NCBI GenBank assembly: GCA_040768485.1
Contig: JAXGMU010000002.1
Span: 106,285 to 168,865, forward strand
Length of the DNA: 62,581 bases
Direction: 5' to 3'
From: Bacteroidales bacterium
GTDB taxonomy: Bacteria > Bacteroidota > Bacteroidia > Bacteroidales > GCA-2748055
Below, in pieces: positions 8,593 through 19,822 of this stretch. The translations under genes and the position numbers were made by a program. Position 1 is the stretch's first letter. Each line of letters opens with the position of its first letter. The notes under the pieces are model-generated. The model did no database searches, was not told where the DNA came from, and worked only from the letters and a program-made list of their open reading frames with translations.

Positions 8593-9309
8593 TCAGAGAT
8601 CCCCGGAAACAAAGAACTGTTCCAGGCCTTTTACAAATTTACCCAGGCTGGGCATCTTTTCCGCCAGTCCGTGCGTGAAGTAGTGCAGGTCCAGTTTATT
8701 GACCACCGCGTACAGCCGGTCCCGTTTCTTCGTGTAGTCATGTCCAACCAGCCGGTAGATCGCTTTCATGTCCTGCGACGGACAATCCCTCTCCTCCATG
8801 TTCCCGGTGGCCGGATTAAAACCGAGGTGCTTCTCGATGAAGGCAGGGGTGAGCCTTTTGGATACTTTCTTGAGGTGTTTGTGTTCCCCCAGGAACCAGG
8901 CCTCTATCTCCATAATAGCCAGATAAATGTGAGTGAAGGCCTTTTTCTGCGGAAGCTTGTAGTTCAGTCCCCGGAGCAGCTTCCCCACCTCCTCCCTGCT
9001 GAAATTGGGATACACATCCCTCAGCCCGATCACCATGTTGTACCCGTTGGAAACCAGCTTTTCCCGGTGCGCCAGCAAGTACCCTTTCACGTTGCTTTCA
9101 CCCCCGCAATCATAAATCAGCACATAATAATCCGTGAAGTTGTCAACATGTGCTGCCTTCATCACGGTGAATGACATCCTGACATTGTGACCGCCCGTGA
9201 TCTTCACGGTCTGCACCGCGATCCTGTGTTTGTCCATCACGGAGTCGAGCAGGCGCCTGACCAGGATCTGCTCGGTAAGACCTTCTACAAAAATGGCAAG
9301 CTTCCTCAT
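8593..9309 (-). CDS. DUF4276-like / TOPRIM-fold putative nuclease partner of an ABC ATPase
   Basis: N-terminal FVEGLTE, central GLRDVYP, and MEIEAWFLGE; ATGA overlap with the upstream ATPase. Confidence 0.65.
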   Translation of the reverse strand: MRKLAIFVEGLTEQILVRRLLDSVMDKHRIAVQTVKITGGHNVRMSFTVMKAAHVDNFTDYYVLIYDCGGESNVKGYLLAHREKLVSNGYNMVIGLRDVYPNFSREEVGKLLRGLNYKLPQKKAFTHIYLAIMEIEAWFLGEHKHLKKVSKRLTPAFIEKHLGFNPATGNMEERDCPSQDMKAIYRLVGHDYTKKRDRLYAVVNKLDLHYFTHGLAEKMPSLGKFVKGLEQFFVSGDL

Positions 9310-10484
9310 TCTTCCGGTTCCCCGTCTTTTTCATCCTCCAGGTCAGCATCCCTGAAACCGGATTTGAAAAATTCGCTCGCATAAAAATCGAAATTATTGA
9401 GCCCCGTATATTTAAATTCCTCAAAGATCTCCCTGGAATTCTCGTAATTGAACAGGCTGATCTTGTTCCCTTCACGCTGAAGCACCGCCCAGTTCTTGAT
9501 ATCCACCGCATTCATGATGAAGGAGTCATTGGTGGACATGATCAGCTGGATGGAAGATTGTGCTGCCTTTTCGATCAGGAGCTGCACCAGCTGGGTGGCA
9601 CGCTTGAAATCCAGGCCCTCCCCGATATCATCGATGATCACCAGTCCCTCCCTCCCGCACAGCATGTAATAGTTGAGCTGGACGAGTACGGAGAAGGCCC
9701 TGAACATGCCCTGGGAAATGTCCCGCTGGGTGACCTGTTTTTCCAGTCCCGTCTCGGTCACATACACCGCATACCTGTCCTCGCTGCTCTTGCTGAACGG
9801 CTCCGAAAAACGGATGATTCCAAAATCCTCCAGCTCGTAATCAATCTCCTTCATATCCTTCAGCACCAGCTCCTTGAATGTGTCATTCCGGGAGGTGGCG
9901 ACCGATACGATGGGCACCAGTGAATTCCTTGTCACGCCCAGGTCAAGCTCCTTTTCCTCAAAGGAAGATTTCAGGGCATACCGGTTTTTTCCCAGTTCAC
10001 CGCTGAAATCAAACCTCCGCATGTTGATGGCCCAGTCATGCAGCCGCTCAATGAAAGGATGCTGGAGCCGGTCCCTCTTGGCATAACACGCCAGCTGTTC
10101 ATGGGGGATCCCGAAATCCAGGAAAATGGATCCGGGTGTGGCCTCATACTTGATCCTCCCCTTCCCTTCATCCCCCCTGTCCAGCACCAGCTCATCATTC
10201 ACATACATCCGTTCCAGGTGGACGGTATCCAGATCGTATTCCAGCTGGTACCGCATCTCATTATCCCCGTTGCGGAAAAGCACCCTGTATGTAACCGGTC
10301 CCCCGGCACTGGTCCCCTTCCCCAGCAGCATCCCCACCAGATCCGAAAGCGCATTCAGTGTCCTGGTCTTGCCGCTGGCATTCTTGCCCACCACCAGGTT
10401 GATCTCCCCGAGGCTCACCTGATCGATCAGCCATTCGATTTTTTTTCCTGCATTTTCACGGAAGGAGAATTGACGGAGGTACAT
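9306..10484 (-). CDS. Soluble ABC-type (AAA_15/AAA_21-like) ATPase; probable start MYLRQF at 10484
   Basis: Walker A GKNASGKT, signature ISQGMFR, Walker B IIDDIGEGLD, switch STNDS; no transmembrane segments. The longer ORF to 10631 only translates the upstream repeats. Confidence 0.85.
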   Translation of the reverse strand: MYLRQFSFRENAGKKIEWLIDQVSLGEINLVVGKNASGKTRTLNALSDLVGMLLGKGTSAGGPVTYRVLFRNGDNEMRYQLEYDLDTVHLERMYVNDELVLDRGDEGKGRIKYEATPGSIFLDFGIPHEQLACYAKRDRLQHPFIERLHDWAINMRRFDFSGELGKNRYALKSSFEEKELDLGVTRNSLVPIVSVATSRNDTFKELVLKDMKEIDYELEDFGIIRFSEPFSKSSEDRYAVYVTETGLEKQVTQRDISQGMFRAFSVLVQLNYYMLCGREGLVIIDDIGEGLDFKRATQLVQLLIEKAAQSSIQLIMSTNDSFIMNAVDIKNWAVLQREGNKISLFNYENSREIFEEFKYTGLNNFDFYASEFFKSGFRDADLEDEKDGEPEE

Positions 10485-10529
10485 GGTGGAAGGAGTTAGA
10501 TGAGTTAGTGAGTTAGATGGGTTAGGTTT

Positions 10530-10580
10530 GTTAGAGTTGTTAGAGTTGTTAGAGTTGTTAGAGTTGTTAGAGTTGTTAGA
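10530..10580. repeat. 9-bp tandem repeat (GTTAGAGTT) x5.7, preceded by degenerate GAGTTAG units from 10493
   Basis: Read directly from the sequence. Confidence 0.95.
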
Positions 10581-10645
10581 TAAGGTAATAAAGTTAGTTT
10601 TTTTGGCTGATTTTATAAGGAGAAAGCGCATTAAATGGGAAAAAG

Positions 10646-10976
10646 ATGGATTTAAGCAGATTTAGAATCATTGAGATTTCGGACAGGCTTTCTGATGATA
10701 TCTGGGATGAGGTCCAGCAGTGGAACCGGTTTGATCAGGACACCATCGGAAAACAGCTTGCGAGGGCGGCAGATTCTGTCTCGGCAAACCTGAGCGAGGC
10801 ATACGGCAGGTATACATTTCCTGACAGGAAGCGGTTTTCATATATTGCCAGGGGGTCTCTGTGTGAAACACTGAATTGGATCGGAAAAGCGACAAGGAGG
10901 AATTTGCTGGATACAAAACTCGGTGATGAATTACTACATCCGAAGTCTTGACCGAAACCCGACCAACACTTCCTGA
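10646..10976 (+). pseudogene. Four-helix-bundle protein (23S rRNA IVS protein / Avd-like family), C-terminus frameshifted or internally deleted
   Basis: QLARAADSVSANLSEAYGR and FSYIARGSLCET are family motifs. The frame stops at 10951, but a family-like tail MNYYIRSLDRNPTNTS* runs in the +1 frame at 10926-10976. Confidence 0.75.
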
Positions 10977-11012
10977 TCCCTTCCTGATCCCTTCCTGAGC
11001 CCTTCCTGAGCC
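10969..11012. repeat. 11-bp tandem repeat (CTTCCTGAKCC) x4
   Basis: cttcctgatcc x2 followed by cttcctgagcc x2. Confidence 0.95.
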
Positions 11013-11049
11013 CTTTCTAACTCCCCTAACTCATCTAACCCCGAAGGGA

Positions 11050-12732
11050 TCATAGCACATACGTTAACCCCAGCATGATCCTGAACCGGTATGATGGATA
11101 CTGGTTATAGATGTAGTACTTCTGGGCGGCCAGGTTGTTGATGCGGGCCCAGAAGGAGAGCAGGTTGCTGTAGCGGTACTCCACGCCCAGGTTGGCGTCC
11201 ACCGTGAGCGGCAGTTTGCCCGGTTCTTCTCCGGGCCCGAAGACCTTGTAATAGCGGGGACCGATGGCGAAAATACCGCTGTTGAACAAAATTTTATCGC
11301 TCATGTTATAGCGCACCTGGAGGGAGAGGTCGAAATCCGGGTGGTGCCAGGGATGATCCTCCCTGACCATCAGGTAACTGTAGTAGTTCCCCTTCAGGAA
11401 GATCTTCCACGGATCGGAGGGCCTGATGGTGAATTCCCCGTGCACATTGACCATGGTCAGGTCGTCGTAGATGACCCTGAACTGGTTCTTCAGCTCACTG
11501 CTGGTGTCATTCACGAAATAGTGCTGGTTGTCAATGATGGAATAGCTTCCCTTCAGGTTCCAGGCCAGCGCATCCGAAAAGCGGCCCTTGAGACCGGCAT
11601 AGGCAATCAGCTTGTGGTTAACGGGCTCGATGGCAAGTCCCGGCACCACATATGGGTTCTCCTCCACGGTTTTCCGCAGGCTGTAGGACTCCAGGTACCC
11701 ATCCACACCGAAGTAGGGAACGATCACCTCCCTGACGATGTTGAACTGGAAGGTGGCCCTGGGATAAAAATGGGGTGTGAACACCCCGCCGGTGATCTCG
11801 GAATAGATATTCACCCCTGCCGTGAATCTCCATTCGGCTGAGCCTTTTGCCAACGTCGGCTTGAGGCGGATGATGGCCTGGTTCCCCACAAGTGTGTCCC
11901 AGGATGCATCATGGTTGTAATATTCAAATCCCGCATCGCCTGCGATATCAATGGCCCTCAGGCTTTTGTCGAAGGTGAAATCAAACGTGCCCGCGTGCTC
12001 GGCCAGGTCGAACCGGTGGGTGAAATAGTGGTATCCGAGACCGGTGTTATAATTGAAATGCAGGGAATCCGCATGCATGGAGTGCAACCCGATCCCTCCT
12101 GCCGCGGTGAAGTAAGGATGCAACGCATCCTCCCTGGCGAGCACCGTATCCAGATCCGGATCAACCCCGTAATGCACATATGAATTGTAACTGGCCCCGG
12201 CTTTGTATTCAAATACCGCATTCCGAAGAAACCTGTTGCCGAAAACCTCCCCCATGTTCTCGTTAAAACCTGCTGCGGCCTTCAGTTTTTCGGGCTCCGT
12301 ATCCAGCTTCACCTTCCCGTTCATGGAATGGTGCTTCAGGTTCAGGCCGAATGTCCCCCTGCGTGACCTGAGCTGACTGATATTCAGCTCGGCCAGCGGA
12401 GTCAGGTAATTCCCCAGTCCCATGGTAAGCTGGCTCTTGTAAAGCTTCTTCAAAGGAGCCTGCACCATTCTGGCGGCGTTGATGGGTTCCACCCTGAACT
12501 CACTCTCATAGCGTTTCGGGAAAAGCTGGTAGGTGAAACCGGGCGACTCGAAGGCCACCTCTTCATCCAGACTGGGAAGAAGCTGGATCTTTTCGGCACC
12601 CGACAGGGTGGGCGTGTAAGGTTTCACCACCCGGACCTCCTCCTGCTGGCCGCTCAGGCTGAGCGGGACCAGGACACTGATGGCTGCAATCAGCAGCACG
12701 GAAAGGAAATATTTCATATGCATCTGGTTCAT
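11050..12732 (-). CDS. Outer-membrane beta-barrel / TonB-dependent-receptor-like protein (partner of the TPR protein)
   Basis: Signal peptide, VVKPYTPTLS N-terminal motif, amphipathic beta-strands, C-terminal INNL...Y...YPSY..GLTYVL; the usual Bacteroidota position downstream of the TPR gene. Confidence 0.75.
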   Translation of the reverse strand: MNQMHMKYFLSVLLIAAISVLVPLSLSGQQEEVRVVKPYTPTLSGAEKIQLLPSLDEEVAFESPGFTYQLFPKRYESEFRVEPINAARMVQAPLKKLYKSQLTMGLGNYLTPLAELNISQLRSRRGTFGLNLKHHSMNGKVKLDTEPEKLKAAAGFNENMGEVFGNRFLRNAVFEYKAGASYNSYVHYGVDPDLDTVLAREDALHPYFTAAGGIGLHSMHADSLHFNYNTGLGYHYFTHRFDLAEHAGTFDFTFDKSLRAIDIAGDAGFEYYNHDASWDTLVGNQAIIRLKPTLAKGSAEWRFTAGVNIYSEITGGVFTPHFYPRATFQFNIVREVIVPYFGVDGYLESYSLRKTVEENPYVVPGLAIEPVNHKLIAYAGLKGRFSDALAWNLKGSYSIIDNQHYFVNDTSSELKNQFRVIYDDLTMVNVHGEFTIRPSDPWKIFLKGNYYSYLMVREDHPWHHPDFDLSLQVRYNMSDKILFNSGIFAIGPRYYKVFGPGEEPGKLPLTVDANLGVEYRYSNLLSFWARINNLAAQKYYIYNQYPSYRFRIMLGLTYVL

Positions 12733-19644: not shown

Positions 19645-19662
19645 ATACTGCTACTTCGTAGC

Positions 19663-19703
19663 GTTAGTTGAGTTAGTTGAGTTAGTTGAGTTAGTTGAGT
19701 TAG
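19663..19703. repeat. 9-bp tandem repeat (GTTAGTTGA) x4.5
   Basis: Read directly; ends in GTTAGGTTTGT as the 10.5-kb array does. Confidence 0.95.
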
Positions 19704-19735
19704 GTTTGTAAGTCCCATTCCCTAACTTCTAACAA

Positions 19736-19822
19736 TTTCGACTCCCGACTTTCAACTCCCGACTCTTGACTTTCGACTAAAGACTTTCGACTAAAGACTT
19801 TCGACTAAAGACTTTCGACTAA
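19736..19822. repeat. Heptamer array: 12 units of Tnnn(G/A)AC, including (GACTTTCGACTAAA) x~4, overlapping the mutS2 stop
   Basis: tttcgac tcccgac tttcaac tcccgac tcttgac, then alternating tttcgac/taaagac. Confidence 0.93.

Follow-up and report, generated by a model that had tools for sequence, protein, structure and literature searches.

Here, we describe a 545-nt unit at positions 10495-11039 of a 62,581-nt stretch of Bacteroidales DNA (positions 106,285 to 168,865 of contig JAXGMU010000002.1, GenBank assembly GCA_040768485.1), which is called the window as a whole. The unit is probably a decayed member of a class of cassettes in which a gene is packed into a repeat hairpin, i.e., the design of the intervening sequences (IVS) of ribosomal RNA placed in an ordinary intergenic spacer. 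In the class layout that we propose, a gene of the four-helix-bundle (4HB) protein family PF05635 would lie between inverted arrays of short tandem units. The preliminary description of this DNA, which was made from the sequence alone, had likewise read the unit as an IVS-like cassette outside rRNA, with inverted tandem-array ends and without a transposase, and our results agree with it on this point. All numbering refers to window positions; G000 denotes the source genome, and all other G labels denote congeneric assemblies.

Association of the 4HB Gene with Tandem Arrays

The search for family PF05635 covered all 49 genomes of the genus; in a control set, Bacteroides thetaiotaomicron also scored for the family. 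A locus was counted as array-flanked if a tandem run of at least 13 was present on a flank, and as carrying an inverted repeat if its inverted-repeat score exceeded 13.5. A tandem run was found at 27 of the 31 PF05635 loci of the genus overall and at 24 of the 26 loci with both flanks, and 16 of these 26 lie above the inverted-repeat threshold. The window locus itself has an inverted-repeat score of 18 and flank tandem runs of 44 and 32. As controls, 898 random pseudo-cassettes were drawn from three congeneric genomes; the tandem-run threshold was reached by 14 of them and the inverted-repeat threshold by one.

For the wider survey, we distinguish the 4HB clade that occupies the window site (clade A; 80 loci from many phyla, 71 with full flanks) and two other 4HB clades resident in the genus (clades B and C), which were sampled from 401 Bacteroidota genomes. 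PF05635 is a very large family: it was matched in 161 and 143 of these 401 genomes for two clades, and clade A occurs in many other phyla. Arrays were found at 40 of 71 loci in clade A, 11 of 27 in clade B and 10 of 29 in clade C, and inverted repeats at 32 of 71, 15 of 27 and 15 of 29 loci, respectively. Altogether, approximately half of the 127 wider loci are flanked by arrays. The hairpin-cassette design is typical, not universal. Two expectations raised along with the preliminary description, namely that other family members carry repeat or inverted-repeat flanks and that arrays are far more common at 4HB genes than in random controls, are borne out by these counts.

The density of repeats differs strongly between genomes. 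In 200-kb samples, Tandem Repeats Finder reported one row in G018, which has no PF05635 gene, four rows in G017 and 27 rows in G000. Both 4HB genes of G017 are flanked by arrays although this genome is nearly array-free in its sample, and therefore the link between gene and array does not come from repeat-rich genomes. The link is not due to chance.

In clade A, the arms also share a common core. Outside the genus, the 300 nt upstream of the gene contain 12.4 copies of GTCAT per kb and the 260 nt downstream of it contain 17.1 copies of ATGAC per kb, compared with a background of 0.87 per kb for each motif at a distance of at least 500 nt. At least three copies of the GTCAT/ATGAC core in this polarity are present at 47 of 69 clade-A loci, while the opposite polarity is seen at seven loci. 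The core is absent from all 58 loci of the other clades (0 of 29 each in clades B and C). The units built around it vary in length from 7 to 25 nt. Clade-A proteins outside the genus have a median identity of 60%, and pairs from different phyla reach 78-81%. The 4HB gene and its arm core therefore travel jointly from phylum to phylum. This fits an ancient horizontal spread of whole cassettes, combined with a function that would depend on the core.

Structure of the Unit and Decay of its Gene

The features of the unit and its surroundings are collected in Table 1. The unit spans the spacer of two minus-strand genes and leaves 10 nt on each side, to the start codon of an ATPase gene (ATG at 10484) and to the stop codon of a gene for a 560-aa protein (11050). 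Its termini form a perfect inverted repeat, which extends to 17 nt at 94%; a search of positions 10400-11150 lists five further overlapping arm pairs. A terminal stem of approximately 30 bp is predicted in the minimum-free-energy fold and in the centroid fold of both strands. The 545-bp unit, its 14-bp inverted repeat, the arrays, the open reading frame (ORF) and the 10-bp spacings had all been placed correctly in the preliminary description.

Table 1. Features of the cassette and of its neighbourhood, in window positions.
Feature	Position	Strand	Description and basis
DUF4276/TOPRIM-like protein, downstream	8593..9309	-	Pfam, PADLOC
AAA_21 ATPase, downstream	9306..10484	-	Pfam, PADLOC
Arm beside the ATPase gene	10493..10597	.	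GTTAG-core 9-mers with ten GTTAG; 10493-10525 degenerate (period 9, 3.8 copies), 10528-10580 perfect (period 9, 5.9 copies, 100% matches), tail to 10597; Tandem Repeats Finder
Cassette	10495..11039		545 nt
Terminal inverted repeat	10495..10508 / 11026..11039		14 nt, perfect; read from sequence
A/T-rich leader, arm to start codon	10598..10645	+	Promoter presumed; sequence reading
Truncated 4HB gene	10646..10951	+	101 aa, PF05635/TIGR02436, RxxxSxxxNxxE motif; profile searches
Helix-4 remnant	10929..10976	+	+1 frame (..NYYIRSLDRN..), alignable with the C-terminal end of the ortholog in G043; reading by eye
11-mer array	10969..11015	.	CTTCCTGAKCC, period 11, 4.3 copies, 97% matches; Tandem Repeats Finder, inverted-repeat search
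Arm beside the 560-aa gene	11016..11039	.	CTAAC-core 9-mers, period 9, 2.7 copies, complementary to the opposite arm; Tandem Repeats Finder, inverted-repeat search
Host sequence outside the cassette	11040..11052	-	Stop codon of the 560-aa gene and CCC-UUCG-GGG hairpin; kept in congeners without cassette
560-aa gene, upstream neighbour	11050..12732	-	No Pfam/NCBIfam family at cut-off; "outer-membrane protein" is the label of the preliminary description

The ORF in the cassette scores 67.6 bits with PF05635 (cut-off 33.8, E = 1.3e-18) and 66.7 bits with TIGR02436 (cut-off 24), so that the four-helix-bundle assignment made earlier is confirmed above both curated cut-offs. The gene is not intact, however: the PF05635 match covers profile positions 4-94 of 106 and not the full-length four-helix domain, and a deletion that shifts the frame interrupts the last helix. 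The ortholog in G043, which is the closest one (77% identity), has approximately 38 nt at the start of helix 4 that the window copy lacks; the C-terminal remnant can be read solely in the +1 frame, according to a reading by eye. The protein has the sequence RAADSVSANLSE at the RxxxSxxxNxxE motif. It carries a G five residues before the R, in contrast to three residues in GxxRxxxSxxxNxxE, which the accessible text of PMC3936711 gives as the conserved motif of PF05635/TIGR02436 proteins.

The second PF05635 gene of G000, located on contig C16 (L001:1353-1900), contains an in-frame TAG. These two are the only PF05635 genes in the 95%-complete assembly, and neither is intact. With the 4HB gene dead in G000, only the hairpin and the arrays could still act there. 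On one side of the gene on contig C16, an AGTCGAA array of 11.7 copies is found; the other side has only a CTAACGACTAA remnant. This gene lies between convergent genes, in an orientation opposite to that seen in six congeners.

Two small observations concern the edge next to the 560-aa gene. The CCC-UUCG-GGG hairpin at 11040-11049, directly after the stop codon, is present in G012 and G022 and occurs in an altered form in G004; it is therefore part of the host gene rather than of the cassette. The 11-mer unit at 10974-10994 is an inverted copy (10 of 10 nt) of the stop region of the same neighbouring gene (11043-11052). Judged from this match, inverted copying of adjacent host sequence is suggested as a way to seed new array units.

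History of the Junction within the Genus

To follow the site through the genus, the 560-aa protein was searched in 40 relatives and the DNA 3' of the stop codon was read. The 3' end of the gene is included in 28 loci, and in 15 of them the ATPase gene is next downstream. A 4HB gene lies between the two genes in 6 of these 15 junctions, window included, and the family search adds six genomes with the same layout, such that 12 of the 49 genomes carry the cassette at this junction. In all 12 copies, the 4HB gene is antisense to both neighbours. A check by script called 9 of 11 covered copies antisense on both sides; the downstream gene was miscalled in G043 and the upstream gene was uncallable in G049.

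Nine of the 12 same-site copies read intact and three are truncated (G000, G010, G021). Protein identity among them ranges from 50 to 77%. For the pair G000 and G043, identity is 77% for the 4HB protein and 86% for the ATPase, and for G017 and G021 it is 73% and 92%, respectively. Over all 45 same-site species pairs, the co-divergence of the 4HB protein and its neighbour is weak (Spearman 0.24, p = 0.11), and only the two closest pairs are informative. The ratio of nonsynonymous to synonymous substitution rates (dN/dS) is 0.074 for G022 and G049; at a second conserved site, the pair G019 and G058 has a dN of 0 and a dS of 0.029. Intact 4HB copies are under constraint.

The nine junctions without a 4HB gene (G014, G012, G004, G006, G018, G008, G015, G001, G011) show what is left behind. 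A remnant of 181 nt in G014 retains both arms and the first codons of the gene, and G012 has a bare hairpin of 68 nt. One-arm remnants, with CTAAC-type repeats next to the ATPase start only, are seen in G004, G006 and G018. The spacers of G008 (58 nt) and G015 (22 nt) are clean, while other inserts occupy the junction in G001 and G011. Empty alleles had been sought in relatives, and these two clean spacers, along with five congeners that keep gene-less remnants, provide them. The junction can be read as a natural time series, from the intact cassette via the truncated one, the gene-less hairpin and the single arm to the empty spacer. The cassette is an old resident which was inherited vertically in the genus, lost or reduced in several species and broken in G000. 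Same-site copies, the decay series and the agreement of the closest pairs indicate an old lodger that is lost piecemeal and not a fresh insertion.

The remnants allow another reading, in which the ATPase-side arm has been retained because, as an A/C-rich leader, it serves the translation or regulation of the defence-like ATPase gene, the rest being debris. CTAAC-type repeats do remain directly upstream of the ATPase start in G012, G004, G006, G018 and G014. Such repeats are missing from G008 and G015, however, and the junctions of G001 and G011 are occupied by other inserts; we hold this reading for extremely improbable.

More serious is the idea of a currently or recently mobile element that was inserted here, with gene-less arrays as its non-autonomous derivatives, similar to miniature inverted-repeat transposable elements (MITEs). 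Empty sites exist; different phyla share the arm core along with proteins of 78-81% identity; arrays are present at sites that are empty in sister species; and array counts vary by orders of magnitude among congeners, with pattern counts from 0 to 321 across 49 genomes and control counts near 0. Yet the position and orientation of the cassette are shared by 12 species, with protein identities of 50-77%, and in the two closest pairs the cassette has diverged approximately as much as its neighbours. There is no target-site duplication, as the 10-nt flanks GGTGGAAGGA and CCCGAAGGGA differ. A scan of six neighbouring ORFs against Pfam revealed no transposase, recombinase or reverse transcriptase, and both copies in G000 are broken. 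The copy in the window is not a recent or active insertion, and we give the mobile reading as a whole little chance.

As a side observation, the insert that replaces the cassette in G001 (L005, after the stop codon of the 560-aa gene) has a length of 641 nt and contains two short ORFs.

Evolution of the Arms

At the window site, the arm units differ between species. GTTAG-type arms are found in G000, G043, G055, G056 and G010. Other units at the same site are GGTTAAT (G022, G049), GGTTATT (G060), GGTAAAT (G057), GGATAGG (G017, G021) and GTAGAAGG (G020). In every copy with two surviving arms, the units of one arm are complementary to those of the other; the arms co-evolve at this genus site. 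For the parts of the stretch covered by contigs of a different study, the number of units could also be compared with a near-identical strain. This strain has an additional 11-mer after 10968 (depth 10.2) and, at a low depth of 3.4, an additional 9-mer after 11016, which means that the arms change by whole units. In summary, arms change by whole-unit slippage and differ between species, while the pairs stay complementary.

The second conserved site, which lies between convergent genes, provides a different kind of change. Here, G000 and G063 carry the whole cassette in the orientation opposite to that of G001, G017, G019, G020, G044 and G058. When the own partner of an arm was ranked among 25 right arms, it took the top rank in 7 cases and one of the top three ranks in 13, a ranking which is blurred by homology of the flanking genes in flipped cassettes.

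Additions that come with this window are the same-site decay series, the co-variation of the arms, the polymorphism of unit number between strains, the orientation bias, the GTCAT/ATGAC core and the negative result on G:U pairs.

Evidence against the Proposed Class and Alternative Readings

Several results weigh against a gene-in-a-hairpin class that acts via RNA. Approximately half of the wider loci have neither an array nor an inverted repeat above the thresholds. A conserved core was found in one clade only: GGTGA/TCACC was found in just 2 of 29 clade-C loci, and the cores of clade B are diverse (AGTGC in 4, AGTCG in 2 and GAGT-type in 11 of 29 loci). The plus-strand fold of the whole unit is no more stable than that of shuffled sequences (z = -0.33). 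In the window copy and its 11 orthologs, the gene runs against the direction of both neighbours, and the genus is atypical in this respect. Arm mismatches show no G:U bias on either strand, as seen in 17 genus loci (48 versus 43, with 86 transversions) and in 53 loci of the wider set (93 versus 107, with 276 transversions). Excision by RNase III has been shown for rRNA IVS, and cleavage of the window unit is proposed by analogy only. Finally, 47 of the 49 array loci in G000 are without a 4HB gene, and G003 has 75 matches to the GTTAG pattern and no match to PF05635.

These last figures lead to the reading that the arrays are genome-wide intergenic repeats independent of the gene, and that the 4HB gene merely sits or is retained there. 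The 49 loci of G000, each with at least three GTTAG/CTAAC or AGTCG/CGACT units, are nearly all intergenic; 32 lie between co-directional, 11 between convergent and 3 between divergent genes. Rows of Tandem Repeats Finder fall outside ORF interiors in 27 of 28 cases for GTTAG and in 27 of 35 cases for AGTCG. The orientation of solo arrays with respect to flanking genes has no clear bias (27 runs versus 19). G003 is not the only array-bearing genome without a PF05635 match, since G013, G062 and G012 belong to the same group, with 22-75 GTTAG-pattern matches among the four. Within the window, a gene-less array cluster occupies positions 19645-19804, in the spacer from the MutS2 gene to the next gene; this spacer is empty in G003 and G055, while G017 has its own GGATAGG unit there, at a contig end. 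Array-rich genomes without PF05635 and the variation in the MutS2 spacer imply that arrays spread or persist without the gene. Nevertheless, we consider full independence very unlikely. G017 and G018 are nearly array-free in their 200-kb samples, yet both cassettes of G017 are flanked; the genus loci and the controls differ as given above (24 of 26 versus 14 of 898); across phyla, a single protein clade shows the arm core (47 of 69 versus 0 of 58 loci); and the gene-less arrays of G000 are built from precisely those two unit families that its two cassettes contain.

The cluster in the MutS2 spacer consists of AGTCGAA-type 7- and 14-mers, followed by two GTTAG units which face five CTAACTCAA units and form a small hairpin. 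Arrays are also met at the ends of assembled sequences: contigs begin or end inside them at G017:C2:1-90, in C43, C57 and C70 of G043, and in C199 and C525 of G049. Arrays therefore break short-read assemblies and are under-counted.

A further alternative is a module that works at the DNA level, with inverted arms serving gene inversion or a cruciform or hairpin in replication, and without a role for RNA. The flipped cassette at the second site speaks for it, as do the arm mismatches, in which transversions are at least as frequent as transitions. Energies calculated with RNAduplex are split evenly, with 14 loci in favour of the sense strand and 14 in favour of the antisense strand. Since no preference for G:U pairs is seen, the complementarity looks like a product of arm-to-arm conversion and slippage in DNA rather than of selection on RNA pairing, and concerted evolution of the arms is what conversion between inverted repeats predicts. 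The inverted repeat may accordingly be kept by a DNA-level process such as inter-arm conversion, a point to be added to those against an RNA function. On the other hand, the orientation of cassettes is strongly non-random. Among 103 callable wider loci, 81 are co-directional with both neighbours and 8 are antisense to both, compared with a baseline of 43% and 16%, respectively, from crude gene calls in G000. A bias of this kind would be lost if cassettes flipped frequently, and the six neighbouring ORFs scanned include no recombinase gene. A purely DNA-level module therefore appears quite unlikely to us.

Returning to the gene-in-a-hairpin cassette, the same orientation data suggest that most cassettes could be read from the host operon, like the rRNA IVS. 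The three resident sites of the genus are arranged differently (antisense, convergent and antisense). Because their copies are placed in antisense or convergent position yet are constrained, intact genus copies would need a promoter of their own. In the leader of the window copy, a scan by eye for a promoter of the Bacteroidota type gave nothing convincing.

Possible Mode of Action and Relation to Known Systems

For the window unit, we envisage the following sequence of events. In any transcript that crosses the spacer, the arms would pair into a stem of approximately 30 bp which closes the 545-nt unit. This stem would be a site for RNase III, as in rRNA IVS, and cleavage would separate the message of the upstream 560-aa gene from the ATPase message. 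By analogy with the rRNA IVS of Coxiella and Leptospira, we regard stem formation in the transcript together with recognition by RNase III as a tentative possibility. The tandem units, in turn, would be binding sites of the ring-shaped 4HB protein, a proposal that we hold for somewhat unlikely. It is based on the fact that the units are tandem and clade-specific and that a relative of known structure (see below) is a pentameric ring; the 4HB protein may hence read its own arm units. That the protein may bind the repeats, as put forward in the preliminary description, is indirectly supported by the GTCAT/ATGAC core, which is confined to one protein clade (47 of 69 versus 0 of 58 loci).

A more far-reaching version is unlikely in our view, but its consequences would be considerable. 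Here, the 4HB ring would recognise its own arms by their sequence, each subunit taking up one unit, much like the way in which ring proteins such as TRAP read spaced triplets, and gene and arms together would form a self-propagating system without transposase, whose arms seed gene-less arrays at dozens of intergenic sites. If this were true, rRNA IVS, 4HB cassettes lodged in operons and the short tandem intergenic repeats of many bacteria would be one system.

The closest parallel is the IVS in helix 45 of the 23S rRNA of Coxiella burnetii. According to the accessible text of PMC4990558, it comprises 428-444 nt, has a terminal stem of 28 bp, is excised by RNase III, carries a decaying PF05635 (S23p) ORF and has descended vertically after an ancient horizontal arrival. 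As far as this text goes, the window unit shares with it the size (545 nt), termini that close a stem (approximately 30 bp, predicted), the PF05635 ORF in the loop, decay and vertical descent. In contrast to the rRNA elements, it is located between protein-coding genes, with no Rfam match in 10200-11300 at E-values up to 1; its arms, instead of unique sequence, consist of tandemly arrayed units of 9 and 11 nt; and it is antisense to its neighbours.

With respect to the protein, the only solved structure matched by sequence is XCC0516 of Xanthomonas campestris (PDB 2gsc, E = 3.4e-5, residues 34-82), for which we know of no function. The Pfam family also includes Avd, the accessory protein of diversity-generating retroelements; in contrast to the context of Avd, no reverse transcriptase is present among the six ORFs scanned. 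Apart from the Avd branch, no function of PF05635 proteins has, to our knowledge, been established since their discovery in rRNA IVS in 1993. XCC0516 is a homopentamer of four-helix bundles that forms a ring (as cited in the accessible parts of PMC4990558 and PMC3936711). The window protein differs from it in being without most of helix 4.

On the side of the repeats, the short tandemly repeated repetitive (STRR) sequences of cyanobacteria are short-period arrays of tandem heptamers, which are intergenic and dispersed at many loci. We know of no reported link between STRR sequences and a gene. The arrays of G000 are likewise of short period (7-9 nt), intergenic and present at 49 loci, but they occur in another phylum and share their units with the arms of a 4HB cassette. 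Transposons and MITEs are similar in their inverted ends, in sub-terminal repeats of fixed inside/outside polarity (47 versus 7 loci in our data), in gene-less derivatives and in a patchy distribution across phyla. The cassette differs from them in that it has no transposase and no target-site duplication and is fixed at its site in 12 species.

In the searchable full text, a body that excludes bioRxiv supplements and subscription journals, we found no report of PF05635 genes that, outside rRNA, are enclosed by arms made of tandem arrays. Genes of this type are placed between cas genes in the accessible text of PMC3936711, which does not mention repeats, and they are merely listed in the accessible text of PMC8700078 and PMC11637426. 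The gene-in-a-repeat-hairpin package is a widespread and, as it seems, undescribed genetic lodger. If 4HB genes are normally packaged in inverted tandem-repeat arms, the rRNA IVS would be one particular form of a more general intergenic element, a possible source for short tandem intergenic repeats would be at hand, and the binding of protein to repeats as well as the mapping of RNase III sites would become concrete experiments.

Neighbouring Genes

The ATPase gene and the DUF4276 gene behind it match the defence systems AbiLi (1.2e-20), AriA (2.9e-17) and HEC-01A/B in PADLOC and, to judge from these matches, appear to be a defence-like pair. The 4HB protein of the window is matched by no defence family in PADLOC. 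The ATPase pair is itself accessory, because it is absent in G016, where the 560-aa gene is directly followed by a DNA-alkylation-repair gene. G003 has undergone a larger deletion, after which the stop codon of the 560-aa gene adjoins internal sequence of the DUF4276 gene, so that part of the ATPase pair is missing along with the cassette.

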